64,000 nucleotides of DNA from NCBI GenBank assembly GCA_041499965.1, contig JBGQLG010000004.1, positions 15,103-79,102 of the forward strand, in the 5' to 3' direction. Numbering within the stretch: the first letter of the stretch is position 1; each line of letters starts with the position of its first letter. The position numbers were made by a program, and so were the translations under genes. The notes beneath the pieces are model-generated. The model made no database searches and was not told the origin of the DNA. It worked only from the letters and a program-made list of their open reading frames with translations. This document shows positions 5,968-42,063 of the stretch, piece by piece. Source of the DNA: Candidatus Methylomirabilia bacterium (lineage in GTDB: Bacteria; Methylomirabilota; Methylomirabilia; Rokubacteriales; CSP1-6).

Positions 5968-6119
5968 GCCTCCGTCGCCGGGGTCGGCGCCAGAGGGGTG
6001 AGGCTAGCGCGAGATCTCGGCGGCTGCGTGCCGATAGAGCGCCGGGAGGGAGCGGGGAGGCCGGCGACCGGTGCGACAGGTCGTCACCGGCTCCCCTCGC
6101 TCCACCCGATCCGCTTCGG

Positions 6120-18258: not shown

Positions 18259-18268
18259 GGGGTGTCCT

Positions 18269-20413
18269 TTACCCCTGCGCCGGGGTCAGCGGCAGGGTGA
18301 AGTGAAAGGTCGAGCCCTGGCTCTCGCGGCTCTCCGCCCAGATCCGGCCACGATGCAGCTCGACGAACTTCTTGCTGATGGCCAGGCCGAGCCCGGTGCC
18401 GTCAGCCTGCTGAGCGAGCGGATTGTCCAGGCGCTGGAACGGCTCGAACAGCCGCTGCAGGTCGCCGGGCGAGATGCCGATGCCGGTGTCGGCCACGGAG
18501 ACGTGCAGGGCCTCGGGCTCGGGCCGGACCTGCACCAGCACGTGGCCGCTGTGCGTGAACTTGATGGCGTTGGAGAGCAGGTTGAGCAGCACCTGCTTGA
18601 CCCGCATGCGGTCAGCGTGGACCATCGGCAGCTCGACCGGCATGTCCTTTTCGATCTTCACGCGCTTGTCCCGGACCAGCGGCATCGAGGACTCGATGCA
18701 CTCCTCGACCACGTCGTGCAGGTCGAACTTCTCCGGACGCATCTCGAACTTGCCGGCCTCGATGCGGGAGAAGTCGAGGATGCTGTTGATCAGCTCCAGC
18801 AGGTGGCGGCTGGAGTTGTGGACGGAACGGACGTACGCCTCCTGCCGCTCCGTGAGGTCGCCGTCGAGACGGTTGAGCAGGACCTTGGAGAAGCCGATGA
18901 TCGAGTTCAGCGGGGTCCGCAGCTCGTGCGACATGTTGGCGAGGAACTGCGATTTGAGACGGCTGGCCTCGAGGAGGCGGGCGTTGGAGGTGGCCAGTCC
19001 CTCGTAGAGCCGCGCGTTCTCCAGCGAGATGGCGGCCTGGGTGGCCAGCAGCAGGAGGACCTCGAGCTCCTGGTCGTCGTAGATCTCGCCCGACAGCTTT
19101 TCGCCGAGGAGGAGGATCCCGTTGAGCTTGTTCTCGACCTTGAGCGGCACGATCAGCGCGGCCTTGACCGCTTCTAGCTCGCCCTCGGCCGTCTCGAAGT
19201 AGCGGGCGATGCGGGGGTTCAGCTTCACCTCTTCCTTGACCAGCAGTCCCTCGGTCGTGACCAGCCACTGAGCGATGGGGCTGTCGGCGCGGATCGACTC
19301 GATCCCCGAGCCCTCCTCGACCGTGGTGTCCTCCTGGTAGTTGACGAACGCACCGGTGGTGGGGTCGTGGATCATGAGCGTGGCGTGGGTGGCCGGGATG
19401 CCGCGCACCAGTCCGTGCACGAGCGTATCGACCAGCTCGTTGAAGTTCAGGATGGAGCTCATCCGCTTGCTGATCTGCAGCAGGGTCTCGTAGCAACCCT
19501 GCCGCTTGCTGAACATCATCCGCTGGATGCGGTCGTCGAGCCCCTGGCCCAGCGGCGACAGCAGCACCGTGATCACCGCCCCCACCGGCACGATCAGCCA
19601 CAGCGCGCTGGCTTCCTTCAGGTTGAAGTAGTCCTCGATCACCTTGGTGGCCACGCCGAGGACGAGCGTGATGACGGTGCCCACCAGCGCGTAGACGGCC
19701 GTCTTCTTCACCGCCACCGCCACCGCGAACAGGCGGTAGCGCACGATGGACGTGCCCAGCATGAGGGCGAAGATCATGTTGGCCGGAATGCCGACCGGAT
19801 AGACGTAGTCGGCGGCCGGCACGAATCGGCTGAGGATGAAGCGCGCGAAGTCGACCCAGCCACCGGCCAGGCTCACCAGGGTGCCGAGCATGATCAGCGT
19901 GCCGCGGTTGCGCCGGAAGCTGGAGTCGATGCCCCGGTGGTCCCGCACGAGGAGGATCACGCCGTAGATCATGAAGCCGTTGAAGGCGAGCAGGTACGGC
20001 AGGTACAGCGGGCCGGTCGCCGGCGCCCAGCCCCAGTGCGTGGCCTTCACGCCGCTCATGAACCACGGGGAGCCGGACAGGTTGATCAGCTCGTAGATGA
20101 AGGCCAACAGGTAGGCCAGGACCAGCGACGGTCGATGACGGGTCGTGCTGTCGAGGAAGATGAGGACGAAGTGGTAGTAGAAGGCCGGCAGCGCGATGAC
20201 GCCGATGTGGATGACGATCTCGACGAAGTAGGCGGTCCACTCGTCGGGGCTCGTGCGCAGGAGGAAGACGCCGAAGTTCCACAGCGCCATCCCGGACGCG
20301 AAATAGGCAAAGACGCGGTTGAGCCGACTCCCCGGGTTGCGCAGCAGCGACAATCCGGCCAGGGAGACGTTGAGGAAGAACGCTACGAGCGGGAGAAGAC
20401 TATGAGGGCTCAC
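18269..20413 (-). CDS. sensor histidine kinase with 7TM N-terminal module, GAF, HisKA, HATPase_c
   Basis: Seven hydrophobic helices. [11 protein letters not shown]-box. [10 protein letters not shown]. Confidence 0.85.
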
Positions 20414-21077
20414 GCCCGTTCCCCTCGGGCGGATCGAGAGGAAGGTAGACCTTGTCCTTCTGGCGCTGCGCTTCGATCTCCTCCTTGAGGATCCCGAAGA
20501 TCACCAGGTCCCAGTACCGTTCGCCGTCGAAGCCGGCCTGGCGGAGGATCCCCTCCTGCCGGAACCCGTTGCGCCGGAGGGAGTTCATGCTGAGCACGTT
20601 GTACTCGTAGACTTTGGCTTCGATGCGACGCAGGCCGAGCACGTCCACGCCATAGTAAGAAATGAGTTTACCTGCTTCGACCCCGAAACCCCGCTTCATT
20701 GCTCGCACGTCGGTGATGATCGTCTCCAGGAAGGCGTAACCCTCCAGCAGGTGGATGTTGAAGAGGCGCACCACCCCCACCGGTTTGGTCCAGCCCCGGT
20801 GGGCCTCGATGACCAGCACGATCTGGGTGGGATCGGTCAGGACCGCCTCGAAGAAGGCCGGCGACTTGTCCCACACATGCTTGTAGGACTGCAAGAACTC
20901 GCTGCCGACCATGCGTTCGAGGAACGGGTCGTCGACCCACGCGGAGAGATGGTCGAGATCTGCCGGCGTGAATGTCCGGAGATAGACCCTGGTGCCGCGG
21001 GAGATGACGCTGCCGCGCTCGCGGGGCGGCGTCGATTGGGAGGGGGCGTCAGGCCCCTGGTGCTCCACCGAGATCAC
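20400..21077 (-). CDS. GNAT family N-acetyltransferase (RimJ/RimL-like)
   Basis: VRLFNIHLLEGYAFLETIITD, RGFG, LRRIEAKVYEYNVLSMNSLRRNGF. Start placed at the GTG overlapping the STAS stop rather than the ORF-track start at 21140. Confidence 0.65.
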   Translation of the reverse strand: MISVEHQGPDAPSQSTPPRERGSVISRGTRVYLRTFTPADLDHLSAWVDDPFLERMVGSEFLQSYKHVWDKSPAFFEAVLTDPTQIVLVIEAHRGWTKPVGVVRLFNIHLLEGYAFLETIITDVRAMKRGFGVEAGKLISYYGVDVLGLRRIEAKVYEYNVLSMNSLRRNGFRQEGILRQAGFDGERYWDLVIFGILKEEIEAQRQKDKVYLPLDPPEGNGREPS

Positions 21078-21430
21078 ATTCCGGGACCGGTCCAGAGCGC
21101 GAAGGCGGTGATCGTCCCCGTGTCCTTGAGCGCCCGGCACACCACGTCATTGGCGCGCAGCGCCAGCGTGCCACTGGGCTGTGCCTCGAGCACACGACGC
21201 GCTTCGAGCAAGGCCGCGATGCCGGCCGCGTCCAGCGCCGTCACCGCTCGCAGGTCGATCACCTGGCGCGTCCGGCCATCAGCCACGGCCTGCCGGATCT
21301 GTGCGCGCAACGCCGGGGCCGTCACGGCAGTGAGGGGACCGGCGAGTCGGAGCCGTTCCGGACCGGTCGTGGTCCGGTCGGCTGCCGGCGTCGCCGTACC
21401 CTCGTGCATCCCCGCATCGACGGCGCTCAT
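21074..21430 (-). CDS. STAS-domain protein (anti-sigma-factor antagonist-like)
   Basis: 118 aa. LRLAGPLT...IDLRAVTALDAAGIAALL, SpoIIAA-like. Confidence 0.65.
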   Translation of the reverse strand: MSAVDAGMHEGTATPAADRTTTGPERLRLAGPLTAVTAPALRAQIRQAVADGRTRQVIDLRAVTALDAAGIAALLEARRVLEAQPSGTLALRANDVVCRALKDTGTITAFALWTGPGM

Positions 21431-21445
21431 GGTCAGGAGCGTTTC

Positions 21446-22204
21446 CTAGAAGTCGATATCAAAGCGGACGAGCGGAGCACCCAGCGACAGCTCGTTCGGC
21501 TGGATGTCCAGGCAGCGGCCGGCCGGGGTCCCCGCCGCCTCGACGTTGTCGAGGTAGGCAAGGTCGACACCGCCGTAGAGCGCCGCTGCGTAGGGGTTCG
21601 GGTTCGGGGTCAACGGGCAGAAGATCTGGCGCAGGGTCAGCTTCATCTTCACTCCGGGCGCGACCTCGACCTCGGTCTCGAAGTTGCCCGCGAAGGGCAG
21701 CCGGAAGACGCCCGTGAAATTGCGATTGCGGCCCCGGTCCGCCTTCACCTTGCCGACGACGGTGCCGAACGGGATGTCGTGCAGGATCGCCGGCGAGAAA
21801 TCCATCTGCCCGTGGAACTCGCCCTTGAGCACCACGGCCTCCGGCCCGTCCACGGGGTTGTCACCCTGGATGACCGTCGCGAAGTTGCCATCGAGCGTGC
21901 CCAGGCCGGTGGTGAGACTGACGTTGTCACTGCCGAGCACGTTGACCGCGCAACCGGCCGGACCGCTCTGCAGATCCGCGCTCGGGCACAGCGGCGTCCC
22001 GGGCACGGCCACACCGGTGATCGCCGAGGTGGCGAGGCGACGGGCGACCGGCGGACGATGCCGTTGATTCCTCTGCACCAGCTTCATGTTCTCGGTCAGC
22101 TCATAAAGGGTCGCGTCGCTCGCACGGGCCAGGGCCGGCGCGCTAGCAACGGCGACACCCACCAATCCCAGAATGGCGACGATCCGCTTTGATGTCGGCT
22201 TCAT
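21446..22204 (-). CDS. secreted hypothetical protein
   Basis: MKPTSKRIVAILGLVGVAVASAPALARA signal peptide. No recognisable domain. Confidence 0.5.
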   Translation of the reverse strand: MKPTSKRIVAILGLVGVAVASAPALARASDATLYELTENMKLVQRNQRHRPPVARRLATSAITGVAVPGTPLCPSADLQSGPAGCAVNVLGSDNVSLTTGLGTLDGNFATVIQGDNPVDGPEAVVLKGEFHGQMDFSPAILHDIPFGTVVGKVKADRGRNRNFTGVFRLPFAGNFETEVEVAPGVKMKLTLRQIFCPLTPNPNPYAAALYGGVDLAYLDNVEAAGTPAGRCLDIQPNELSLGAPLVRFDIDF

Positions 22205-22433
22205 CTTGCTCTCCGTTCTCCGCGCTCCAACGTCGCTCGCCGGTGCGAGGCTTCAATGGCCCGCTTGGGCGGGATCAACTACTACAGCAAGCTCAGTACC
22301 AAACTACGCGACCGATCCATAACCTATTGGGAATAAAGATAAGATTGCCTCAGGCGCCCCCTCAAACTGCGGTCTCCCGGGTGATTCCTTAACGACTGAT
22401 CAGGTCGAGGTGACACGAACGGCGAGAAACTGA

Positions 22434-23255
22434 TCAGCCCCTGGACTCGCGCTCAGGATTGGCGACCCGCACCCACGCCAGGAGGCTGATTCCAGCCAGG
22501 AACGTCTCGCGGCGCTCGAGAATCTCGAACCCCGCGGCGCGGAGGACGGCATCGAACTGCTCGCGGTTCAGATAGCGGGGACGGACGCCCCGGAACGCGT
22601 CGAAGAGTGCGGTCGGGAGCAGCCAGCGCAGCGCGCGAATCGCCGCCCACCAGCCGCGCCGGCGCCGGACCTCGGCGAACGTGCGCAGGACGTGCGCTCG
22701 GCGCGCGTAGGTGAGGAACACGATGTGGCCGCCCGGCTTGAGGGCGCGTCGGCAGGCGGCCAGCAGGGCGGCGGGGTCCGGGTGCCAGTAGAGCGTGTGC
22801 ATGCTGACGAGCACGTCGAAGCCGCCACCGGCCGGCGTCGCGTCGCGCGCGAGGTCGGCATGCTGGAAACTCAACGACAGGTCGGTATCACGATGATGAC
22901 GCCGGGCGACGTCGACGAGATGCTGCACCGCATCGACCCCGACGACCGTCCAGCCCCGCCGGGCGAGACGTGCGGCCACCGTGCCGATGCCGCACGATAC
23001 ATCCAGTACGCGCGTGGCCGCCGGCGCACCCGGCCGCGCTCCGCGCTCGACCAGCCCGATGACCTCGTCGACGAGCGCTTCGTAGGGCTGGAACCCGCGG
23101 ACGATCGCGTCGTAGGTGAGACCGTAGCCGACGGCGATCAGCCGTTCAACCGCGGGCTGGAACGGCATGTGCGCCCCCGTGGCTCCACCGACCGGAGGAG
23201 CCAGCAGGCCCGTGGAGGCCGGCGATGCCGCCGAGCCGGAAGACTTGCGCCCCAC
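22434..23255 (-). CDS. class I SAM-dependent methyltransferase (paralog 2)
   Basis: VLDVSCGIGTVAARLARRGWTVVGVD motif I. LKPGGHIVF. Confidence 0.8.
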   Translation of the reverse strand: MGRKSSGSAASPASTGLLAPPVGGATGAHMPFQPAVERLIAVGYGLTYDAIVRGFQPYEALVDEVIGLVERGARPGAPAATRVLDVSCGIGTVAARLARRGWTVVGVDAVQHLVDVARRHHRDTDLSLSFQHADLARDATPAGGGFDVLVSMHTLYWHPDPAALLAACRRALKPGGHIVFLTYARRAHVLRTFAEVRRRRGWWAAIRALRWLLPTALFDAFRGVRPRYLNREQFDAVLRAAGFEILERRETFLAGISLLAWVRVANPERESRG

Positions 23256-23258
23256 GGG

Positions 23259-24062
23259 CTACGCCTCGCTCTCCTTCTTGGCCAGCACCAGAACGCTGGC
23301 GCCGTTGAGGAAGGTCCGCCGTGTCTCGAGGACGGTGAATCCGGCCGTCCGCAGGTTGGCGCCGAAGGTCGTCTCGTTCCAGTAGTGCGGGCCGACCCGG
23401 CGTCGGGTCGCCTCGAACAGCCAGTGCGGGAACAGCCAGAGCAGCAGGCAGCGCAGTGCCGCGGCCGTTCCCTCGGCCTGGCGTAGCTCCTGGAACGTGG
23501 CACGCGGGCGGACCGCACCGGTGTGATTGACGAAGATCGCGTGGCCGCCGGGCTTGAGCACGCGCCACGCGTGAGTGAGCACGGCCTGGGGATCGGCATG
23601 CGCGTAGAGGGAATGGACGTTCACGACCTGGTCGAACGATCCGTCGCGCAGCGTCGCGGTCGGCAGGTCACCCTGCGTGAACGCGAGATTGGCCAAGCGC
23701 TTGGCCCGGCGCTTCTCTCGCGCGAGTTCGACCAGCGCGCCATACGGTTCGAGGCCGAGCACCGAAAAGCCAGCCTCGGCCAGTACGAACGTGAGATTGC
23801 CAGGACCGCAGCCCACGTCGAGCACCTGGAACGCGCGCCGGTCAGGCGAGGTGGCCTTGGCCGCCGTCTCCACCAGCTCCAGCACCTCGGCCTGCAGCCG
23901 CTGGTAAGGGGCGAACTGCTCGAAAATATAGTCGTACACGAGCCCGTAGCCGATCGACAGCATCCGGTCGATCGTCCACTGGAACCCGCCCTGCAGAGAC
24001 CCCATGACCACCTCCGCCGGGACCGGGGCATCGGCGTGCGCGCTGGTCCGTGGGTGCATCAT
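23259..24062 (-). CDS. class I SAM-dependent methyltransferase (paralog 1)
   Basis: VLDVGCGPGNLTFVLAEAGFSVLGLE. LKPGGHAIF. Shares an N-terminal IGYGL.YD block with the adjacent gene. Confidence 0.8.
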   Translation of the reverse strand: MMHPRTSAHADAPVPAEVVMGSLQGGFQWTIDRMLSIGYGLVYDYIFEQFAPYQRLQAEVLELVETAAKATSPDRRAFQVLDVGCGPGNLTFVLAEAGFSVLGLEPYGALVELAREKRRAKRLANLAFTQGDLPTATLRDGSFDQVVNVHSLYAHADPQAVLTHAWRVLKPGGHAIFVNHTGAVRPRATFQELRQAEGTAAALRCLLLWLFPHWLFEATRRRVGPHYWNETTFGANLRTAGFTVLETRRTFLNGASVLVLAKKESEA

Positions 24063-24071
24063 AGCCTCCCG

Positions 24072-24449
24072 TCAGGCGCGATCCGCCAGGACCTTCTCCA
24101 CAGTCCCGCGCAGCTCGTCGGACGTGAACGGCTTGAGGAGAATCGCGTGAAAACCCATGCGGTTGGCTTCATCGATGATCTCGGGGGTGCCGTGACCTGT
24201 CACCAGCACCACGGCCATGCCGGGGTGCAGCGTGCGGGCCTGCTGAAAGACCTCGAACCCGGTCATCCCGGGCATCTTGTAGTCGAGGACCATCAAATCG
24301 AATGGTTCTTTTCGCATCAACTCCACTGCGGTCTCGCCGCGGTTGGCGCCCTTGACGGCGTACCCGAGCGCCTGGAGGACGTTGACGCACAGGACGACGA
24401 CCGGACCGGCGTCGTCGACGATCAGGATCTTGGTCTTGGCCGGGCTCAA
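24072..24449 (-). CDS. single-domain response regulator (CheY-like)
   Basis: ILIVDD...LMVLDYKMPGMTG...LLKPF. Confidence 0.85.
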   Translation of the reverse strand: MSPAKTKILIVDDAGPVVVLCVNVLQALGYAVKGANRGETAVELMRKEPFDLMVLDYKMPGMTGFEVFQQARTLHPGMAVVLVTGHGTPEIIDEANRMGFHAILLKPFTSDELRGTVEKVLADRA

Positions 24450-26044
24450 TTCGCCTGGGCCAACGCAGGCGAGTCGGTCGCGCTGCCGCTCGTGAGCGTT
24501 TCGTAGTGCCGGGTGATCTCTTCCAGACGCTCCAGCGGGACCCTGAGGAAAGCCTCGACCACCGCCGGGTCGAAGTGCGAGCCGACGCCGCGCGAGATCT
24601 CCTCGCGGGCCTCACCCAGCGCGAGCGCCGTGCGATACGGCCGGTTCGAGGTGATCGCGTCGAAGACGTCGGCTACCGTGACCACCCGCGCGACGATCGG
24701 GATGTCCTCAGCCCGCAGGCCGTCGGGATAGCCGGTGCCGTCCCACCGCTCGTGGTGGTGACGGACCGCGCACGTCTCGCGGGCCAGGAATCGCAGGGGC
24801 TCGAGGATCTTGGCCCCGACCACCGGGTGGCTCTTGATGATCGTGAACTCCTCGGCGGTGAGCCGCTCGGGTTTCCGCAAGATCGTGTCCATGATGGACA
24901 GCTTGCCGAGGTCGTGCAGCATCGCCCCCCGCCGGACCACTTCCACCATCTCCAGCGTCATGCCCATCGTCTGCGCGATCTCGGCGGCGTAGAGCGCCAC
25001 CCGGGCGGAGTGACCCTTGAGGTACCGGTCCTTGGACTCGATGGCGTTGACGAAGGCCGTGATGGTGTCGACGAGGTTGCGCTCGACGTTCTCGCGCAAG
25101 ATCAGCTTTTGCAGCGCCACGGCCGTGCTCTGGGCGTAGCCCAGCAGCATGTCGCGCTCGTCCGGCAGGAAACCGCCGGTGGTCGCCTCGCGGGCGAGGC
25201 ACACGATGCCCATGGTGTGCCCCACCCCGGGGATGACGGCCGCCATCGCTTCGAGCGGCTCGCCGGCGATGGTGACACCGAGCGTCTCGCGTCTGCCGCC
25301 GGCGACCATATCCTCGAATGACCGCTGCAGTGACGTCAGCAGCCGCGTCACCAGCGGGCCGGCGCCCTGCTGGCTGCAGCCGAAGGCGCCCTGCTCGTCG
25401 CGCAGGAGCACGAGGGCCGCGTCGCTCTTGATGCTCTGTCCGATCAGGCCGAGCACCTCGTCCATGAACGCCGAGGTCTCGAGCCCCTGTAGGGCCAGGT
25501 CGCCGATGCGGAACATCACCTCCACGCCGGACTGCCGGCGCGACAGCTCCTCCGTGAGCCCGGCCGGCAACGGCACCTGGCCGTCCCACTTCAGACGGTC
25601 GGCCCGGATGCGCACCAGCAGCTCCTGGACCTCGCGGATCGAGAAGGGCTTCGGCAAGTAGTCGTAGGCGCCGTGGCGCAGGCCAAAGACCGCCGAGTTG
25701 ACCGAGGGGTTGCCGGTGATGAGCACGACCGGTGTCGCCGGCTGCTTGCCCTTCACCGCGCGGAGCAGATCCAGGCCCGACAGCCCCGGCATTTTGATGT
25801 CGGACACGACGAGATCGAAGGCGTGCGCGGTGATCAAGGTCAGCGCCTGCTCGGCGGCTGCGGCCTGCGTCACCGTGCACCCGTTGGCCGAGAAGGCCGA
25901 GACGAGAAAGCGCAACAGCGACGCGTTGTCGTCGACCACGAGGACTCGGAGGACCTCGGGGGCGACGGCGCTCGGAGAAACCGCGGGCATGGGCACCAGT
26001 CCTCCTACTTGGCGGCCGACATCTGGCTGAGGAACTCCATCCAC
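24446..26044 (-). CDS. response regulator with HD-GYP c-di-GMP phosphodiesterase output
   Basis: VLVVDDN...DIKMPGLSG REC domain. HD-GYP: LHDLGK and HHERWDGTGYP. ATGA overlap with the CheY gene. Confidence 0.85.
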   Translation of the reverse strand: MDGVPQPDVGRQVGGLVPMPAVSPSAVAPEVLRVLVVDDNASLLRFLVSAFSANGCTVTQAAAAEQALTLITAHAFDLVVSDIKMPGLSGLDLLRAVKGKQPATPVVLITGNPSVNSAVFGLRHGAYDYLPKPFSIREVQELLVRIRADRLKWDGQVPLPAGLTEELSRRQSGVEVMFRIGDLALQGLETSAFMDEVLGLIGQSIKSDAALVLLRDEQGAFGCSQQGAGPLVTRLLTSLQRSFEDMVAGGRRETLGVTIAGEPLEAMAAVIPGVGHTMGIVCLAREATTGGFLPDERDMLLGYAQSTAVALQKLILRENVERNLVDTITAFVNAIESKDRYLKGHSARVALYAAEIAQTMGMTLEMVEVVRRGAMLHDLGKLSIMDTILRKPERLTAEEFTIIKSHPVVGAKILEPLRFLARETCAVRHHHERWDGTGYPDGLRAEDIPIVARVVTVADVFDAITSNRPYRTALALGEAREEISRGVGSHFDPAVVEAFLRVPLERLEEITRHYETLTSGSATDSPALAQAN

Positions 26045-27450
26045 TGCCGCGTCAGCACACCGTCGTTCGGGAACTTCAGCCCTTCGAAGCCCTGCGGCAG
26101 CGCGGGCGACGCCGGCTTGGCGTCGGCGGCCGCGCGCTCACGGGAGGCCGTCGCCGGGGCGGCCAGCGCAGACTCGAGTACCAGCGCCGGCGGCTCCACG
26201 GGCTTGACGCGCTCCTCGATCACCACCGCCGGCACGATCGCCTTCGGCTCCTCGACCGGCTCGGGAATGCGCGGCTCAAGCATGAGCTCCAGGGGCGCGG
26301 TCACGATCGGCTCGGCGGCCAGGGCCTCGACGGCGGCCTCGAGGACGAGCGGCTCGGCGAGGGTCGGCGCGGTCGCCACGGTGGCCACCGCCTCGTTGAG
26401 GGCGACCTGGGTCGCGGTCGTGGCGCCGAGCAGCGCGGTCGCGAGATCCTTGAACGACACCCGCTCGGGAGCCGGGGCGGTGGCGGTCACCACGTGCGCC
26501 GGCGCGATCGCTGGCACGGCATCCAGTACCGGACGCGCCGGCGGCGCCGGGATCTCCGGCAGTGCCAGCGGCTCGATCGTGGCCTCGGGCTCGATCGAGA
26601 GTTCCAGGGTCTCCACCGCGTCGGCCAGCGATACGATCGGGTCCGGCGCCGCGGCGACGAGAGCTTCGACGACGGGCTCGGCCATCAGCGGCTCCGGCTC
26701 GCGCAGCATCACCGGCTCGGCCGCCGGGCGCGGGCGCTCGGTCCACGGTGCCGTGACGACAGCCTGTCGGCTGACCATGCTGACCACGGGCGCCGGCTCA
26801 CGCGACGGGACCACACGTTCGGCGGCGCGGGGCCCGCCGGTGGGCGCGTCGGGGCTCGCCTGCGTGAGGAGCTTCTGGATCTTGGCGCCGGTCGCGCGCG
26901 CGGCAGCGCCGTTCATCGTGATGACGTTCTCGGCGGCTGGGCCCGTCAGCGAGTCCGGGTCGACCATGCGGGCGCTGGCCGGAACGACAGCCCGGCGGAG
27001 CCGTAGGAGCGACTCGAAGTAGACCGCGGGAACGCCGTCGAACTCCAGGTGGCGGAACTCCACGCAGTCGACCTCGGGGAAGCCGAGCTGCTTGATCTTG
27101 CGGTGGAAGGCGTCAGGCATGCGCTCGACCACGAAGAGCAAGCGCGGCGGCCGGTCCTCCGACACCTGGCAGCTTGGGTAGAGCCGCACCAGCGCCTCGG
27201 GATACTCCAGGCACCACGAATAGGCCTCAACGGCCTTCATGAGCATCTCCTCGTTCGCGGTGAATCCGACTGCGCCCAGCACGAGTGCGCCAACGGCGTC
27301 GACGCCGATCACGTCGATCGTCGCGTGCCCCAGCAGCAGGCGTGCGTCGAGGACGGTGAGGCCGGGCTCGATGGCGTCGAAGTTCTCGACGACCAGTGCC
27401 TGCAGCTTGGCGGCATCCTCGATTCGCAGTTTCCTGATCCCCACTCTCAT
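26005..27450 (-). CDS. hypothetical protein: N-terminal NucS/DUF91-like nuclease-fold domain lacking catalytic E-x-K, followed by a long Pro/Glu/Ala/Val-rich low-complexity region
   Basis: ATG at complement of 27450 is preceded by GAGGAG. LQALVVENFDAIEPGLTVLDARLLLGHATIDVIGVDAVGALVLGAVG follows the NucS pattern (ENxxxIExGL...IDLxxxDxxGxxVVIELK) with ELK replaced by GAV. The ORF-track start at 27528 is unlikely. Confidence 0.6.
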   Translation of the reverse strand: MRVGIRKLRIEDAAKLQALVVENFDAIEPGLTVLDARLLLGHATIDVIGVDAVGALVLGAVGFTANEEMLMKAVEAYSWCLEYPEALVRLYPSCQVSEDRPPRLLFVVERMPDAFHRKIKQLGFPEVDCVEFRHLEFDGVPAVYFESLLRLRRAVVPASARMVDPDSLTGPAAENVITMNGAAARATGAKIQKLLTQASPDAPTGGPRAAERVVPSREPAPVVSMVSRQAVVTAPWTERPRPAAEPVMLREPEPLMAEPVVEALVAAAPDPIVSLADAVETLELSIEPEATIEPLALPEIPAPPARPVLDAVPAIAPAHVVTATAPAPERVSFKDLATALLGATTATQVALNEAVATVATAPTLAEPLVLEAAVEALAAEPIVTAPLELMLEPRIPEPVEEPKAIVPAVVIEERVKPVEPPALVLESALAAPATASRERAAADAKPASPALPQGFEGLKFPNDGVLTRQWMEFLSQMSAAK

Positions 27451-27511
27451 CGCTTTTGGCTCCTCACTCAGATGGGCCGGTCGCCCCGGCTCCGTTCGGA
27501 CCCGGAGAGAG

Positions 27512-27527
27512 AGCAAAGGGGGTACCA
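27512..27527 (-). promoter_or_regulatory. candidate sigma-54 promoter (-24/-12): TGGTAC-N5-TTGCT on the minus strand
   Basis: Reverse complement of 27512-27527 is TGGTACCCCCTTTGCT. GG and GC are spaced as in TGGCAC-N5-TTGCW, with one mismatch. Lies about 60 nt upstream of ATG 27450 and just downstream of the sigma-54 activator gene. Confidence 0.55.
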
Positions 27528-27660
27528 AAGCAGACTGTGACGGACAACCCCAGGAGGGACAAAGCTTTTTGGAGCAGAACGGGGAGGGGCGAGGAGGACA
27601 GGATGGGTGATTCGTGTCCGCCCACGCCAGGTTTTCGTGGGGGGTGTGGCCAGAAACGGG

Positions 27661-29019
27661 TCAGGCTAGGGGGGTGGCTTCCGTCAGCTTCTTGCGCAGG
27701 GTCTGCCGCGTGATTCCGAGGATCTTGGCGGCCTCGCTCTTGTTCCCGTTGGCCTGCCGCAGCACCTTGAGGATGTAAGCGCGCTCGACAGCCTCCAGGG
27801 TCCGGGGCTCGCGGGAAACTTCTTCCGGCAAGGGGCCATCTGTTGCCGCCGCGAACGGCACCGGCATCTGGTCGGCCTCGATCGTGTCGCCTACGCTCAG
27901 GATCACCAGGCGCTCGATCAGGTTCTTGAGCTCGCGCACGTTGCCCGGCCACCCGTAGGCCAGCAGGAGTGACTCCGACTCCGTCGCCAGGCGCTTGACG
28001 GCCTTGTGAAAGGTGCTGTTGGCCTCGGCCAGGAAATGACGCGCCAGGGGCAGGATGTCCTCCCGGCGCTCGCGCACCGGTGGGATCGTGAGCGGGATGA
28101 CGTTCAGCCGGTAGAAGAGGTCCTCGCGGAACTTGCCCTCCTTCACCATCGTCTCGAGGGATCGGTTGGTGGCGGCAATCACCCGGACGTCGACCTTGAG
28201 GTCGCGGGTGCCGCCGACGCGCTTGAAGGTCCGCTCTTGCAGGCAGCGGAGCAGCTTGGCTTGGCTGGCCAGCGGGATCTCACCGACCTCGTCCAGGAAG
28301 AGCGTGCCGCCGTCCGCCAGCTCCATGAGGCCCTTCTTCGTGCTCTTGGCGTCGGTGAAAGCGCCCTTCTCGTGGCCGAAGATCTCGCTCTCGAACAGCG
28401 TCTCCGTGATCGCGGCGCAGTTGACCTCCATGAACGGCGAGTTGCGGCGGGCGCTCTCGTAGTGCAGCCCACGGGCGACCAGCTCCTTGCCGGTGCCGCT
28501 CTCCCCCTGCACGAGGATCGTGTGCGCCTCGCTCTGGGCCAGCTGCGTGATCACTTCGCGAAGCCGGCGAGTCGACGTCGACTCCCCGACGATCTGGTTC
28601 GTCCGGTACTTTCCCTCCTGCAGGCCTTGCAGCCGGGTGATCTCGCGGCGCGCCTTCACCTCGTCGAGCGCCCGGGTGACCGTGATACGCAGTTTCTCCA
28701 GATGCTGGAACGGCTTCTCGAGGTAGTCGGTAGCGCCGTTCTTCATGGCGATCACGACGCTTTCGATGTGACCGAAGGCGGTGATCATGATGACCGCGGT
28801 CTGCGGGTGCCGCGCGCGCATCTCCCGCAGGACCTGGATCCCGTCGATGTCGGGCAGGCGCAGGTCGACGAGGGCCACGTCGGGCTCCACCTGGTCGGCG
28901 ATCTCCAGCCCGTCCTTGCCGGTGCCGGCGGTGTGGACCTCGATGTTGTCCTGCCCGAGGACGCGGGATACCAGAGAACGAATGTTGCGCTCATCGTCGA
29001 TCACGAGGACTGAATTCAT
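27661..29019 (-). CDS. sigma-54-dependent Fis-family response regulator (NtrC-like: REC-AAA+-HTH)
   Basis: GESGTGKE Walker A. ESELFGHEKGAFTDA (GAFTGA-type). C-terminal Fis-type HTH (EAAKILGITRQTLRKKL). Confidence 0.9.
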   Translation of the reverse strand: MNSVLVIDDERNIRSLVSRVLGQDNIEVHTAGTGKDGLEIADQVEPDVALVDLRLPDIDGIQVLREMRARHPQTAVIMITAFGHIESVVIAMKNGATDYLEKPFQHLEKLRITVTRALDEVKARREITRLQGLQEGKYRTNQIVGESTSTRRLREVITQLAQSEAHTILVQGESGTGKELVARGLHYESARRNSPFMEVNCAAITETLFESEIFGHEKGAFTDAKSTKKGLMELADGGTLFLDEVGEIPLASQAKLLRCLQERTFKRVGGTRDLKVDVRVIAATNRSLETMVKEGKFREDLFYRLNVIPLTIPPVRERREDILPLARHFLAEANSTFHKAVKRLATESESLLLAYGWPGNVRELKNLIERLVILSVGDTIEADQMPVPFAAATDGPLPEEVSREPRTLEAVERAYILKVLRQANGNKSEAAKILGITRQTLRKKLTEATPLA

Positions 29020-29163
29020 GACTGGATCGATTGTAGCCGAACCGGGCCCCCGTTAAGAAACCTACCATGTGGTAATGAAATTCCCGGGTCGTACCACCCA
29101 TCACTGAGCCGGCAATGACCTGTAAACGCCAACATATCAAGACATATTTGCCGAAAACACCTA

Positions 29164-29180
29164 TGGCACGGCTCTCGCTT
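29164..29180 (+). promoter_or_regulatory. candidate sigma-54 promoter TGGCACG-N4-TCGCT upstream of the GAF-GGDEF gene
   Basis: Perfect -24 TGGCAC with the GC dinucleotide at the correct -12 spacing (TCGC versus consensus TTGC). Only about 15 nt before ATG 29195, so it would be leaderless or the true start lies downstream. Confidence 0.4.
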
Positions 29181-29194
29181 GACGAAGTGCTCCG

Positions 29195-30274
29195 ATGACT
29201 GATCTGCCGACGGGTCGATCCAGAGACGAAGCACGAGTGGCGACCGAGCGCCTCAAGCAGCTCATCGCCATCGGCATCGCGCTGACCAGTGAGCGCGAAC
29301 TGTCGAAGCTCCTCGAGCGGATCGTCGGCGAGGCCCGGCGCTTCGCCAACGCCGAGACCGGCGCCCTCTTCCTTCGTGACGGCGACGCGCTGCGCTTCGC
29401 CGTGGCGCAGAATGACGGGCTGCTCGAGCGCCTGGGCGAGCGCGAGATGCGGCGCCACTTCGCTGCCGAGCCGCTCACGCTCGCCCAGCCGAGCCTGGCC
29501 GGTTACGTCGCGCTGACCGGTCGTCTGGTCAACCTCCCCGACAGCGACGAGGCGCTGCAGGACCAGCCCTACGCCTTCAACCGCGAGCTCGACGCCCTGT
29601 TTCGGTACCAGACAGGCTCGGTGCTCGTGGTTCCGCTCCAGGAACCCAAGGGCGAGGTGATCGGCGTGCTGCAGCTCGTCAACGCGCGCAACGACCACGG
29701 CGAGGTCGTGCCCTTCGAAGCCGAGCTGGAGGGCCTGGTCCAGGCGCTCGCCTCCCAGGCCGCGGTGGCCATCCGCAACGCCCGGCTCGAGGAACTGTCG
29801 TTCAAGGATCCTCTCACCGGCGTCTACAACCGTCGGCACTTCGCGCTCCGCATCGAAGAGGAGGCCAGGCGCCACGCCCGCTTCGGCGAGCCGCTCTCGC
29901 TGGTCCTTCTCGACCTCGACCGCTTCAAGCAGATCAACGACGAGCTGGGGCACGCGGCCGGCGACGACACGCTGCGCGAGTCGGCCCAGCTCATCGTGGC
30001 CAACTCGCGCAGCTTCTCGGTCGTGACCCGCTACGGCGGCGACGAGTTCGCGGTGCTCCTCGTCAACACGCCCAAGGCCGGCGCCGTCAAGTACGCGCGC
30101 CGCATCAAGGACGTGATCGAGCGCCATCGGTTCGTGCACGGACCGCTCACGGTCAGCGTGGGGATCGCCGCGCTGCCCGAGGACGTGACGCACAGCGCGG
30201 ACCTCGTGCCGGCGGCGGATCGCGCACTCTACGCGGCCAAGCGTCTCGGCCGGAATCTCATCGAAGTCGCATAG
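29195..30274 (+). CDS. GAF-domain diguanylate cyclase (GAF-GGDEF)
   Basis: LDLDRFKQIND, RYGGDEF, LYAAKRLGRN. Confidence 0.85.
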   Translation: MTDLPTGRSRDEARVATERLKQLIAIGIALTSERELSKLLERIVGEARRFANAETGALFLRDGDALRFAVAQNDGLLERLGEREMRRHFAAEPLTLAQPSLAGYVALTGRLVNLPDSDEALQDQPYAFNRELDALFRYQTGSVLVVPLQEPKGEVIGVLQLVNARNDHGEVVPFEAELEGLVQALASQAAVAIRNARLEELSFKDPLTGVYNRRHFALRIEEEARRHARFGEPLSLVLLDLDRFKQINDELGHAAGDDTLRESAQLIVANSRSFSVVTRYGGDEFAVLLVNTPKAGAVKYARRIKDVIERHRFVHGPLTVSVGIAALPEDVTHSADLVPAADRALYAAKRLGRNLIEVA

Positions 30275-35510: not shown

Positions 35511-36857
35511 GTGACGCACCCGACGCCCGCGAGTACCACGCCGTCGCCGCTCACCCTGCACGGGCTCAGCGTGGAGGGCGTGAACCAGTGCGTGCACTGC
35601 GGGCTCTGCCTGGCCTCCTGCCCGACGTTCTCCGAGCTCGGCACCGAGATGGACTCGCCGCGCGGCCGCATCTTCCTCATCAAGTCGCTGGCCGAGGGGC
35701 GCATCGGCCTCAGCGATCCGACCGTCGAGCATCTGTCGCTCTGCCTCGACTGCCGCGCGTGCGAGACGGTCTGCCCGGCCGGCGTGCCCTACGGACGGCT
35801 GATCGAGGCGGCCAAGGCCGAGATCGAGCGCCAGAGACCGGGGGGCCTCGGGCGCCGCGCGTTTCGCTGGCTGAACTTCGGGCTGCTGCTCGGTCACCGA
35901 CGCGTGCTGGCCCTGGCCGCCGCGGGGCTACGCCTCTACCAGGCCAGCGGCCTGCAGTCGCTGGTGCGGCGAACCGGGCTCGCGCGGCTGTTGCCGGGCA
36001 CGCTGCCGGCGTGGGAGGCGCTGCTGCCGACGATGCCGTCGGCCGCCGAGCGCGCGCCGCTGCCGGCGCTGACGCCGGCCGTCGGCCCGCGTCGCGCCCG
36101 CGTCGCGATGCTGACGGGCTGCGTGCAGTCGATCGTGTTCGGTGCCCACAATCGGGCGACCGCGCGCGTCCTGGCCCGCAACGGGTGTGACGTGCTGGCG
36201 CCGTCGGGGCAGGGCTGCTGCGGCGCGCTCAACGCCCACGGCGGCGATCACGCGCGGGCCGTCGCGATGGCGAAGCGTACGATCGAGACGTTCGAGGCCG
36301 CGGGCGCCGACGCGATCGTCGTCAACACCTCCGGCTGCGGCGCCCACATGAAGGCGTACGACGCGCTGCTGGCCGACGATCCGGCCTGGGCCGAGCGGGG
36401 CGCCCGTTTCGCGCGCATCGTGCAGGACCTGGCCGAGTTCCTGGCGCGCGAGCCGCTGCGCGGCCCGCTGGCGCCGGTGTCGATGACGGTGACCTATCAC
36501 GATCCGTGTCACGTCGTGCACGGCCAGAAGATCCGCCGCCAACCGCGCGAGCTGCTGGCCCAGATTCCGGGGCTGAAGGTGGTCGATCTGCCGGAGGCCG
36601 ATTGGTGCTGCGGCTCGGCCGGGATCTACAACCTCACCCAGCCGGAGATGGCCGATCGCCTGCTGCGCCGGAAGGTGCGCAACGTGGCCTCCACCACCGC
36701 CGAGGCCGTCGTCACCGCCAACCCCGGCTGCATCCTGCAGATCCAGGCCGGGCTGCGCGCCCAGGGCATCGAGCGCTCGGTGCTGCATCTCGTCGAGGTG
36801 CTCGACCGGGCCTACGCCGGCTCGAGCGCGGCCGCCGAGGCCGCCGCCCGGACGTGA
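35511..36857 (+). CDS. glcF: glycolate oxidase iron-sulfur subunit GlcF-like (2x4Fe-4S + CCG domains)
   Basis: CVHCGLCLASCP and CLDCRACETVCP ferredoxin motifs. Cys-rich CCG region (DPCH, CCGSAG). GTG start 3 nt after the glcE stop. Confidence 0.75.
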   Translation: MTHPTPASTTPSPLTLHGLSVEGVNQCVHCGLCLASCPTFSELGTEMDSPRGRIFLIKSLAEGRIGLSDPTVEHLSLCLDCRACETVCPAGVPYGRLIEAAKAEIERQRPGGLGRRAFRWLNFGLLLGHRRVLALAAAGLRLYQASGLQSLVRRTGLARLLPGTLPAWEALLPTMPSAAERAPLPALTPAVGPRRARVAMLTGCVQSIVFGAHNRATARVLARNGCDVLAPSGQGCCGALNAHGGDHARAVAMAKRTIETFEAAGADAIVVNTSGCGAHMKAYDALLADDPAWAERGARFARIVQDLAEFLAREPLRGPLAPVSMTVTYHDPCHVVHGQKIRRQPRELLAQIPGLKVVDLPEADWCCGSAGIYNLTQPEMADRLLRRKVRNVASTTAEAVVTANPGCILQIQAGLRAQGIERSVLHLVEVLDRAYAGSSAAAEAAART

Positions 36858-37378
36858 CGAGTCGAGCCCCCGGGTCGACGCCCCTCGAGCACAAGGCGAC
36901 CGCGCCGACGTCGGTGGGGTGCTTCGTGCTCACGGTGTCGGACACGCGTACGCCCGACAACGACACCGGCGGCAACGTGATTCGCGAGCTCCTGTCCGGC
37001 GCCGGGCACCCCGTGATTGGCTCGGCGATCGTGCGCGACGAGCCGGCCGACGTCGCGCGCGTCGTGCGCGAGGCCTGCGCTGACCCGCGCGTGCAGGTCG
37101 TTGTCCTCACCGGCGGCACCGGGATCACCTCGCGCGACTCCACCTTCGAGGCGGTGGAGGCGTTGCTGGACAAGCGGTTGCCCGGCTTCGGCGAGCTGTT
37201 CCGGGTGCTCTCGTACCAGGAGATCGGCGCCGCCGCCATGCTCTCGCGCGCCCAGATGGGCATCCACGCGCGGCGCATCGTCGTCTCACTCCCCGGCTCG
37301 CCCAACGCCTGCCGGCTCGCGCTCGAGAAGCTCCTGCTGCCCGAGCTCGGCCACCTCGTACGGGAGGTCAGTCGCTGA
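36854..37378 (+). CDS. moaB: MoaB/MogA-family molybdopterin adenylyltransferase-like protein
   Basis: FVLTVSDTRT...GGTGITSRD...SLPGSP pattern. Start uncertain (GTG 36854 overlapping the glcF stop, or GTG near 36914). Confidence 0.6.
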   Translation: MTSRAPGSTPLEHKATAPTSVGCFVLTVSDTRTPDNDTGGNVIRELLSGAGHPVIGSAIVRDEPADVARVVREACADPRVQVVVLTGGTGITSRDSTFEAVEALLDKRLPGFGELFRVLSYQEIGAAAMLSRAQMGIHARRIVVSLPGSPNACRLALEKLLLPELGHLVREVSR

Positions 37379-39859: not shown

Positions 39860-40933
39860 TCAGTAGCCGCGGGCGCGGTCCACGACCTGGAGCAACGGAC
39901 GGTCGGAGAGGAAGCGCCGCAGGTTGTCCACCCAGAGCGCCGCCACGAGCGAGTCGCGGTCGGGATGCAGGCCGCCGACGTGGGGCAGCACCACGATGCC
40001 GGGCGTCGTCCAGAACGGATGCTCGGCCGGCAACGGCTCCGTCGTGAACACGTCCAGCACGGCGCCGGTGATCCGGCGCTCGCGTACGGCGGAGACCAGG
40101 TCGGCGTCGACGACGAGATCGCCGCGCCCGAAGTTCAAGACCCACGCGCTCGGTTTCAGCCCGGCCAGCGCGGCCTTGTCGATGATCCCTCGGGTCTCGG
40201 CCGTGGAGGGCAGGAGCAGGAGCACGTAGTCCGATTCCGCGAGCACGCGTGCCGTTTCAGAGGGCGCGTGCACGCGCTCGACGTGCGGGATCGCCGTCGG
40301 CTCCCGCTTGGTGCCGATCACGCGCATGCCGAGCCCCGTCGCCAGCCGCGCCACCTCGACGCCGATCGCACCCAGCCCGAGGATGCCCAGCGTGGCGCCG
40401 GCCAGCGTGGGATTCACGCGGCGCCGCCAGCGTCCCGCCGCCTGATCCAGCACGATGCCCGCCAGATCCTTGGAGCACAGGAAGAGCGCCGCCAGGATGT
40501 GCTCGGACATCTGCACGCGATGCGTGCCCCGCGCGCACGTCAGCGCGGCGCCCGCCGGCGTGTCGGCCCCGAGCCATTGCTCGCAGCCGCCGGTCAGCGA
40601 TTGGATCCAGCGTAGTCGCGGCGCCCGGGTGGCGAGCGTGCTCGGCGGCCGCCAGGCCAGCAGCGCGTCAGCCTTGGCCAGCAGTGAATCGGGCGGATCG
40701 GACTTGAGCGGTGTGGTGATCAGCTCGACCGAGCCCGCGAGGCCGGCCGCCTCCGCCGCGCGCAGGTAGGGACCGGCCTCGTCGAGCCACAGCAGGACGG
40801 ACGGCGTGGGGACTAGCTTCCGGCCCGCGCCGGAGCGCTGACCGCCTCCCCCTGGCCGTTGGGCGAGGGCTCGCAGGTCGCGCCGCCCTCGTGGTGGATC
40901 GACAGGTCCTTGATGGTCGGCGACGTCCCGCAC
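39860..40933 (-). CDS. D-isomer-specific 2-hydroxyacid dehydrogenase, NAD-binding
   Basis: GILGLGAIGVEVARLATGLGMRVIG Rossmann motif. RGD...E...PHVGG catalytic context. Only a GTG at 40933 is available as a start, giving a 120-nt overlap with the moeB 3' end. Confidence 0.7.
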   Translation of the reverse strand: MRDVADHQGPVDPPRGRRDLRALAQRPGGGGQRSGAGRKLVPTPSVLLWLDEAGPYLRAAEAAGLAGSVELITTPLKSDPPDSLLAKADALLAWRPPSTLATRAPRLRWIQSLTGGCEQWLGADTPAGAALTCARGTHRVQMSEHILAALFLCSKDLAGIVLDQAAGRWRRRVNPTLAGATLGILGLGAIGVEVARLATGLGMRVIGTKREPTAIPHVERVHAPSETARVLAESDYVLLLLPSTAETRGIIDKAALAGLKPSAWVLNFGRGDLVVDADLVSAVRERRITGAVLDVFTTEPLPAEHPFWTTPGIVVLPHVGGLHPDRDSLVAALWVDNLRRFLSDRPLLQVVDRARGY

Positions 40934-42063
40934 AGCGGGCAGTTGGGATCCCGCCGCAGCCGGACCTCGCGGAAGCGCATGCCGAGCGCGTCGTACGTCA
41001 GCAGGCGTCCGATCAGCGGCTCGCCGATGCCGAGCAGCAGCTTCACGGTTTCCGTCGCCTGCACCATCCCGATCATGCCTGGGAGCACGCCCAGGACCCC
41101 GGCCTCACTTCAGGAGGGCACCAACCCCGGTGGTGGTGGTGTGGGGTACAGGCACCGGTAGCACGGGCCCTGGTTCGGGGCGAACACCGTGGCCATGCCC
41201 TCGAACTGGAAGATCGAGCCGTGCACGTTGGTCTTGCCGGCCAGGTAGCAGGCGTCGTTGACGAGATAGCGCGTCTCGAAGTTGTCCGAGCCGTCGACGA
41301 CGAGGTCGTAGTCCTTGATGACGTCCATCACGTTGTCGACGGTGATGCGCATCGGCAGCGAGACGACGTTGACGTCGGGGTTGAGCGCCTTCAGCGTGCG
41401 TGTGCCCGACTCGACCTTCGGCTTGCCGACGTCCGCCGTCGTGTGCAGGATCTGGCGCTGCAGGTTCGTGATGTCGACGGTGTCGCCGTCCATCAGCCCG
41501 AGCGTGCCCACGCCGGCCGCCGCCAGGTAGAGCGCGGTCGGCGAGCCGAGACCCCCGGCGCCGATGAGCAACACCTTGGAGCGCAACAGCTTCCGCTGGC
41601 CCTTGTCGCCGACCTGATTCAGCAGGAAGTGGCGGCTGTAGCGCTGGAGCTGATCGGGATTGAGCGGCTGGTCCTTGACGGTCGGCAGGCCCGACTGCGC
41701 CCACTTCTGGTAGCCGCCTTGTAGATTCGTGACGTTCTGATAGCCGAGCTCGTGCAGCGCCTTGGCGGCGAGCATCGAGCGCAGCCCGGTCTGGCAGTAC
41801 AGCATGATCGGCGTGGTCGGGTCGGTCACGGCTGCGCCCACACGGAACTCCAGGAAGCCCCGGCTGATGTTGCTGGCAGCCTCGATGTGCCCGTCGCGGA
41901 ACTCGTCGGGGTCCCGCACGTCGATGACCACCAGCGGCTCGTTGGCGGCCAGGCGCCGCTGCAGGTCGGCCGGCCCCTGCTCGGGGATGACCTGCCGGGC
42001 CTCGGCCAGCATTTCCTTCAGAGTTTTCATCTGGGTGATGTTACCCCCATTTCCGGTCGACAT
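40813..42063 (-). CDS. moeB: rhodanese-ThiF/MoeB fusion (molybdopterin/thiocarboxylate-activating E1-like) containing one in-frame TGA at the conserved active-site Cys codon: probable selenocysteine protein
   Basis: ORFs 41110..42063 and 40813..41088 are in the same frame, separated only by TGA (complement of 41110-41112). Rhodanese YCQTGLRS. Thi[25 protein letters not shown]...CPLC zinc motif. The TGA sits where MoeB/ThiF proteins carry the conserved Cys (PS-[TGA]-SEAGV versus LTCVEAGV). A hairpin lies 15 nt downstream. Confidence 0.65.

Follow-up and report, generated by a model that had tools for sequence, protein, structure and literature searches.

Predicted MoeB selenoproteins and their relatives

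A MoeB family containing selenocysteine (Sec) was predicted from Sargasso Sea sequences (Zhang, Fomenko and Gladyshev 2005, PMC1088965) and again in 2008 from Global Ocean Sampling (GOS) data (PMC2398784), and MoeB is listed among the selenoprotein families in reviews (PMC9312934 and PMC13188914). The gene considered here lies on the minus strand of a 64,000-nucleotide (nt) stretch of DNA, referred to below as the window, from Candidatus Methylomirabilia bacterium (GenBank assembly GCA_041499965.1, contig JBGQLG010000004.1, positions 15,103 to 79,102 of the forward strand). What appears at first sight to be two open reading frames (ORFs) separated by an in-frame UGA is best read as one intact gene for a Sec-containing rhodanese-MoeB/ThiF (E1-like) sulfur-carrier-protein adenylyltransferase/sulfurtransferase of the Rokubacteria (Methylomirabilota). 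We put the probability of this reading at roughly 0.85 to 0.9, with the comparison of the gene and its relatives, in DNA and in translated sequence, as its basis.

The marine MoeB selenoproteins (PMC1088965) share with the window protein a ThiF/MoeB domain with the Sec at exactly the same LVPS-U column, one fused rhodanese, and 54% identity (BLASTP) over the C-terminal half of ThiF, across the Sec site. Downstream of their Sec codon the marine genes read GUC CUN GGC GUG CUC CCR GGA (PMC1088965 supplement), and the hairpin core, GG-CGUGCU-CC, is nearly identical in the two groups. They differ in that the marine rhodanese is C-terminal, the MoeZ/Uba4 order, whereas here it is N-terminal; in that the marine genes have a low GC content and a looser stem with U·G pairs and one mismatch; and in that the residue after the Sec is always Ser here. 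The hosts here are Rokubacteria of soil and groundwater, with the Sec form in the majority. As domain order has never been stated as a criterion for the MoeB family, the N-terminal rhodanese is taken to be a different architecture inside that family. By these comparisons the window gene is not a new kind of selenoprotein, but a new lineage and a new architecture in a known family that had been predicted computationally.

The N-terminal placement of the rhodanese is also that of NCBIfam NF006444 (PRK08762, molybdopterin-synthase adenylyltransferase MoeB), which the window protein matches over its full length; entered with Cys for the UGA, it scores 530.2 bits, where the cut-off is 449, and spans model positions 3-374 of 387. 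The Cys forms in NF006444 have Cys at the crossover loop, where the window gene has UGA together with a putative selenocysteine insertion sequence (SECIS). An earlier reading made from the sequence alone (the sequence-only reading) had singled out the domain order as the reverse of the usual one; the order is indeed the opposite of that in the marine and MoeZ proteins, but it is not unusual in itself, being curated as NF006444. Eukaryotic Uba4/MOCS3 and actinobacterial MoeZ/MoeBR have the same two catalytic modules, E1-like and rhodanese, but compared with them the domain order is reversed and Sec stands for Cys, and the similarity is at family level only (E ~1e-53). The best matches among solved structures are E. 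coli ThiF and MoeB (E = 6e-58 and 2.5e-56), which differ in having no fused rhodanese and Cys rather than Sec. HMMER alignments to solved structures put the UGA column at Cys184 of E. coli ThiF, at Cys187 of E. coli MoeB and at the crossover-loop Cys of Uba4 (C202 in C. thermophilum and C225 in yeast; the Uba4 match 6yub reads ...PPPPSAQTS-C-GEAGIMG around the aligned Cys), and so the proposal that the stop falls at the active-site Cys of MoeB/ThiF survives an alignment check.

One Cys-type relative (P0021, 446 amino acids (aa), ending at a contig edge) has the apparent start of a second, C-terminal rhodanese after ThiF, and a rhodanese-ThiF-rhodanese architecture may exist.

Gene model and domains

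The two minus-strand ORFs, 41110..42063 and 40813..41088, are in one frame with a TGA (complement of 41110-41112) as the sole separator, just as first described. Reading through from the ATG at 42063 gives the 416 residues originally proposed, with only one in-frame TGA and then a TAG at 40813-40815. It is the ATG at 42030 (MKTLKEML), however, that is the conserved start: 150 of 159 relatives have ATG at the equivalent position, and 123 of the 159 are without an in-frame start within 15 codons upstream of it. Because of this conservation, and because upstream in-frame starts are mostly missing in relatives, a length of 405 residues is the most likely for the protein, which makes codon 307 the recoded one. 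An exact-protein look-up found the 317-aa form on record and did not find the 306-aa form. The features of the predicted gene and protein are as follows.

40813..42030, minus strand: predicted rhodanese-MoeB selenoprotein coding sequence, complete, 405 codons including UGA for Sec at codon 307; TAG stop at 40813-40815
42063, minus strand: alternative in-frame ATG, adding 11 residues
41695..41973, minus strand: N-terminal single rhodanese domain (Pfam PF00581, E = 8e-20, residues 31-123)
41776-41796, minus strand: rhodanese active-site loop CQTGLRS (Cys90 in the 416-residue numbering)
40936..41640, minus strand: ThiF/MoeB adenylation (E1-like) domain (Pfam PF00899, E = 7e-86, residues 142-376, full profile), with the UGA inside the domain
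41542-41562, minus strand: Gly-rich ATP loop GAGGLGS in the ThiF domain
41152-41163, minus strand: CxxC zinc motif CYRC in the ThiF domain
41110..41112, minus strand: in-frame UGA predicted to be read as Sec, at the crossover-loop catalytic Cys position
40930-40941, minus strand: second CxxC zinc motif, CPLC, of the ThiF domain

The hallmarks of an E1-like ThiF/MoeB protein are all present, namely the Rossmann Gly-rich ATP loop, the two CxxC zinc motifs and, at the crossover-loop Cys site, the UGA; the Pfam domains and the four short motifs bear out the rhodanese, ThiF/MoeB and zinc-motif composition given at the outset. An AlphaFold2 model of a Cys-type orthologue (P0002) was poor, with a mean predicted local distance difference test score (pLDDT) of 62, a predicted TM-score (pTM) of 0.52 and a crossover loop below 50 on a shallow alignment, and no geometry was drawn from it.

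Conservation of the UGA

The DNA sample of 161 sequences comprised the window, 80 soil-metagenome loci and 80 loci from species-representative genomes, nearly all of the latter labelled Candidatus Rokubacteria, Rokuibacteriota or Methylomirabilota. At the UGA site the codon is TGA in 147, TGC in 13 and TGT in one, and the TGA is still kept in these 147 with ThiF-domain protein sequences of relatives diverging down to ~81% identity. The protein search gave a matching picture: of the 120 best clusters, 73 (306-400 residues) have ...GLVP[S/H] as their very last residues, and about 44 are full-length, with GLVPS-C-[A/G/S]EAGVLGVLP at this place, the Cys-type orthologues being 75-85% identical to the window protein. 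By this count the Sec form is the rule within the Rokubacteria and not a rarity, so of the earlier description of MoeB as a known but rare selenoprotein family the first adjective holds, with the same Sec column in the marine proteins (PMC1088965), and the second does not for this lineage. In a neighbour-joining tree the Rokubacteria sequences fall into two clades that are purely Sec (of 105 and 34 sequences) and a Cys clade of 12, with one further Cys sequence; this grouping argues that switches between Sec and Cys are rare and that the Sec form is old.

That the TGA could be a nonsense mutation, or a sequencing or assembly miscall of TGC or TGT, truncating a once-intact MoeB deserves consideration especially as the public gene calls give two ORFs, of 317 aa and of 84 or 87 aa, and many database entries stop at ...GLVPS. 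Against such a pseudogene or error is the presence of TGA in 147 of the 161 sequences across the divergence given above, including two independent assemblies from the same species (JGI Ga0534153_0005992 and NCBI JBGPDR010000197.1, GCA_041482415.1; 99.97% and 99.8% identical to the window). Sequencing error is excluded because these independent and near-identical assemblies show the same TGA. With, in addition, no disruption of the frame after the TGA, a ratio of nonsynonymous to synonymous polymorphism (pN/pS) that is the same downstream as upstream, and a freezing of synonymous sites confined to codons beside the TGA, all of which are described below, this explanation is effectively refuted, and the preference for Sec over a nonsense pseudogene expressed in the sequence-only reading is upheld. 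A reassigned genetic code was also considered as the cause of the in-frame TGA and was ruled out: TGA is an ordinary stop in the window, where many Pfam-complete genes end with it.

Public calls for this locus and more than 100 relatives consist of a truncated "MoeB" of 306-320 aa and an orphan ThiF fragment of 84-87 aa. At L165:4507-5757 and L166:835-2085 the gene is called in two parts, a protein of 317 aa and a 'ThiF' fragment of 84 or 87 aa; the P0046 gene model leaps from ...GLVP to YDALGMRF, as if splicing the TGA region out, and P0001 is a chimeric gene model with a duplicated segment.

Two further observations concern the sampled genomes. The SMAG_U8953 metagenome-assembled genome (MAG) holds a TGA copy and a TGC copy, L052 (DATEMW010000108) and L075 (DATEMW010000197), which are either a Sec/Cys paralogue pair or a binning mixture. 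Six loci (L018, L035, L060, L068, L070 and L071) have genes 81-86% identical to the query, with TGA in all six, on contigs that SMAG labels Binatia, Acidoferrum, Limnocylindria or Dormiibacterota; synteny is like that of the Rokubacteria locus in the three that were checked (L060, L068 and L070), and the labels probably reflect mis-binned Rokubacteria contigs rather than transfer between phyla.

Translation past the UGA

Between the UGA and the hairpin discussed in the next section are four codons whose variation is informative.

41098..41109, minus strand: AGU GAG GCC GGG (Ser-Glu-Ala-Gly), four codons between UGA and hairpin, judged to be translated

The codon-level comparisons were made on the 139 distinct TGA-type sequences. 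Over the 150 codons ahead of the TGA pN/pS is 0.152, over the 60 that follow it 0.155, and over those beyond the hairpin 0.168; in each of the 147 TGA sequences the downstream frame is unbroken. Codons +3 and +4 are GCN and GGN, with synonymous entropies (H) of 1.33 and 1.43 bits, so that their third positions are free while Ala-Gly is kept (n=139). The two codons nearest the UGA behave otherwise: +1 is AGC in 131 sequences and AGT in 8, and +2 is GAG in 139 of 139, where in the Cys type +1 is Ala or Gly and +2 is GAG or GAA. The fixed Ser (AGY) and GAG after the UGA may reflect a context requirement for Sec insertion that reaches beyond the hairpin. Judged from the substitution pattern, reading continues through the UGA, and the part downstream is translated and under constraint.

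A different way of accounting for an undisturbed downstream frame would be a split gene, in which the UGA ends translation, an invariant GUG eight codons on begins a second polypeptide, and the two products come together; the conserved nucleotides would be the start codon and its ribosome-binding site. An in-frame GTG is indeed invariant at codon +8 with GAGG upstream of it, and ORF finders report a 91-aa ORF from that GTG. Yet codons +1 to +7, which precede the GTG, keep S-E-A-G-V-L-G with the Ala and Gly third positions free, which is a signature of translation; the Cys-type orthologues are continuous across the site; a break at this point would sever the crossover loop and the ThiF fold right at the catalytic residue; and the distance from GAGG to GUG, 14 nt, is long for a Shine-Dalgarno interaction. 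The equality of pN/pS on the two sides of the TGA, together with the synonymous variation of the Ala and Gly codons, rules out both the pseudogene and the split gene restarting at GTG, and we accord the split gene next to no weight.

The hairpin as a probable SECIS element

The read-through interpretation draws its specificity for Sec from the sequence that follows these four codons.

41078..41097, minus strand: putative SECIS element within the coding sequence, invariant block GUCCUGGGCGUGCUCCCAGG
41095..41078, minus strand: stem of 6 base pairs (bp), CCUGGG/CCCAGG, with the 6-nt loop CGUGCU; UGA to stem 14 nt, UGA to loop 20 nt

The hairpin CCUGGG-CGUGCU-CCCAGG had been placed 15 nt past the UGA, and its first base is the 15th nucleotide, with 14 nt between. 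Bacterial SECIS (bSECIS) elements have been defined by a loop of 3-9 nt, a stem of 4-16 bp, a G in the first two loop positions, a UGA-loop distance of 16-37 nt and a minimum free energy (MFE) of -7.5 kcal/mol or lower (PMC13188914). The loop here is 6 nt and the stem 6-7 bp, the loop has G at position 2 followed by U, the loop lies 20 nt from the UGA, and the MFE is -9.2 to -11.9 kcal/mol.

The strongest sign that the nucleotides themselves are selected comes from codons at which the amino acid is conserved and the third position could vary. There are 101 such degenerate columns (four- or six-fold, codons -150 to +60), with a median synonymous entropy of 1.08 bits. Exactly five of the 101 have zero entropy in the 139 TGA-type sequences, and these are the consecutive codons +5 to +9, GUC CUG GGC GUG CUC. 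Codon +10 is CCA in 129 and CCG in 10, a change by which U-A becomes U·G with pairing retained. The 13 distinct Cys-type genes provide a natural control, in that their codons for the same peptide differ (GUG, CUC/CUG, GGC/GGU, GUG, CUG, CCC/CCG), and hairpin pairing forced on them gives +0.9 kcal/mol as against -9.7 kcal/mol in the window. The case for a SECIS thus rests on frozen synonymous sites and on the Cys-type control, and neither on thermodynamics nor on covariation. On this comparative evidence the hairpin is frozen in sequence, is confined to the UGA forms and conforms to the bacterial SECIS model, in keeping with its initial identification as a bacterial SECIS.

Proposed decoding and chemistry

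In the decoding that is envisaged, SelB with Sec-tRNA(Sec) would bind the hairpin on the translating mRNA and Sec would be put in at the UGA. By homology, the ThiF domain of the product would adenylate the C-terminal Gly of a ubiquitin-like sulfur carrier of the MoaD/ThiS/CysO type. The crossover-loop Sec, if it acts as do its counterparts in Uba4/MOCS3/MoeZ and ThiF, would attack the acyl-adenylate to give an acyl-selenoester; alternatively it could end in an acyl-selenosulfide, as ThiF Cys184 ends in an acyl-disulfide. The persulfide on the rhodanese Cys (CQTGLRS) would then resolve the intermediate to yield the carrier thiocarboxylate. In such steps Sec would surpass Cys both as a nucleophile and as a leaving group. 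Precedents with Cys are the acyl disulfide that ThiF Cys184, in the crossover loop, forms with ThiS (PMC12596934), and Uba4, whose crossover-loop Cys attacks the Urm1 adenylate to give a thioester that the persulfide of the fused rhodanese resolves to an acyl-persulfide and then a thiocarboxylate (PMC7911844).

Evidence weighed against the selenocysteine reading

Several observations weigh against a Sec-containing, catalytically active product. RNAfold z-scores downstream of the UGA are -0.7 to +0.5, no better than for shuffled GC-rich sequence; the Cys-type sequences fold overall about equally well, on a 70% GC background; and a 66-nt fold of the window region favours another hairpin that is not conserved. 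In the folding check suggested in the sequence-only reading, then, the MFE is within the bSECIS limit and the z-score against shuffled sequence about zero; folding energy has been dropped as an argument because of these z-scores and the similar folding of the Cys-type sequences. There are no double (compensatory) substitutions in the stem: for the six core pairs, 13 cells have one-sided changes that keep a wobble and 3 cells are unpaired, and one stem pair is broken in three marine sequences. Shuffle controls for covariation were uninformative because the stem is nearly invariant.

Searches of the 64-kb window and of 1.79 Mb of related loci turned up neither selA nor selB nor tRNA-Sec, as is to be expected for such a small sample, and synteny clustering of the loci, which covered ORFs of 60 aa or more, revealed no ThiS/MoaD-like partner. 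Turning to the chemistry, the Cys of E. coli MoeB equivalent to the recoded residue has been reported to be dispensable. A MoaD-MoeB thioester has never been observed (PMC7911844). It is because of these last two points that the catalytic role of the Sec is put forward here by homology and in the conditional.

Selenium machinery and other recoding

The searches behind these statements were of several kinds. ARAGORN and Rfam gave no tRNA and no Rfam match in the 64-kb window; ARAGORN gave no tRNA-Sec in the 160 loci; Pfam found no selA, selB or selD among ~40 window ORFs; and tblastn with E. coli SelA and SelB had no match in the 1.79 Mb of related loci. The same search with E. coli SelD found Cys-type selD, 47-50% identical, in two loci only, in both of them next to the rhodanese-MoeB gene.

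L055, 8903-9952, plus strand: Cys-type selD, 48 nt upstream of the rhodanese-MoeB gene, same strand
L080, 11343-12347, minus strand: Cys-type selD, adjoining the rhodanese-MoeB gene, convergent

None of the other 158 loci has selD near the gene, and selA and selB are absent around two close homologues of the L055 SelD. As to the phylum, Methylomirabilota have predicted Sec-type group 4 [NiFe] hydrogenases (PMC13582414), and a Methylomirabilota MAG has 63 predicted selenoprotein genes (PMC13188914).

Recoding of UGA, for its part, need not mean Sec. The amino acid could be Cys, brought by a non-canonical tRNA in a manner dependent on the SECIS and SelB, or Trp or Cys by near-cognate read-through, and a passage in PMC13582414, citing Vargas-Rodriguez et al. 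2018, refers to SelB-dependent insertion of Cys at UGA by an unusual tRNA(Cys). A catalytic Cys site with close Cys-type orthologues is, however, the classic Sec/Cys pair; selD occurs in the lineage, in two genomes right beside the gene; and many predicted selenoproteins have been reported from the phylum (PMC13188914, PMC13582414). The upkeep of both UGA and hairpin across two large clades would also be hard to explain if Cys were inserted, because a plain TGC does the same job without a SECIS. Non-Sec recoding is accordingly given a small chance, and insertion of Sec remains the favoured interpretation.

A scan for Sec/Cys pairs among 237 TGA candidates across the window and all loci returned only the rhodanese-MoeB gene. 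Same-frame TGA junctions at 27661 and 45630 were considered as further selenoproteins and rejected as ordinary gene boundaries.

Neighbouring genes and other features of the window

Upstream of the rhodanese-MoeB gene synteny is conserved, with divergent rmlA/rmlC/rmlB, Trypsin-PDZ and HD genes, and downstream it is variable, with PNPOx-like, 2-hydroxyacid dehydrogenase, MoaB-like and GlcDEF-like genes.

~36854-37378, plus strand: MoaB/Mog-like molybdenum-cofactor gene (PF00994), placed by correspondence with L165:9192-9716

This MoaB-like gene is ~4 kb downstream of the MoeB-like gene, past an HtrA-like protease, and is followed by GlcD/E/F-like genes. In 26 other loci a gene of this kind occurs within 3-4 kb, and in the near-identical twin contigs of the window it is ~4 kb away. 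Its proximity fits a role in molybdenum cofactor synthesis only loosely.

Elsewhere in the window, two tandem paralogous genes for S-adenosylmethionine (SAM)-dependent methyltransferases, at 22437-23258 and 23262-24071 on the minus strand, are in the same frame with only a TAG between them. Window positions ~15571-30271 hold a dense signalling cluster comprising a receiver-GAF-histidine kinase hybrid, a seven-transmembrane (7TM) histidine kinase, a receiver-HD-GYP protein, a sigma-54 activator of the NtrC type and a GAF-GGDEF cyclase, and there is a further GGDEF gene at 4759-6003.

Significance

At the level of annotation, the split entries in public databases should be fused into one selenoprotein. 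The locus and its relatives add a large and well-sampled clade from soil and groundwater to a family previously known only computationally and from marine metagenomes, and they give an unusually clean definition of a SECIS, with 139 distinct sequences and a built-in Cys-type control.

The role of the crossover-loop Cys in plain E. coli MoeB has been doubted. Sec is almost always at catalytic residues, and its near-fixation at the crossover loop of a MoeB with a fused rhodanese therefore speaks for a catalytic role of this residue in bacterial enzymes of the MoeZ type, like the role it has in Uba4. A bolder proposal, which we regard as unlikely though worth keeping in mind, is that the Sec-type rhodanese-MoeB is the main and near-universal sulfur-carrier E1 of the Rokubacteria, acting via an acyl-selenoester or selenosulfide, and would so be the first natural 'seleno-E1'. 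In a more speculative version, suggested by the selD genes that adjoin the gene in two genomes and by the fusion to a rhodanese, it might pass on selenium as well as, or in place of, sulfur, for instance through formation of a carrier selenocarboxylate or by supplying SelD. The Sec/Cys pairs, including the MAG that apparently has both forms, are natural material on what selenium contributes to E1-type chemistry.

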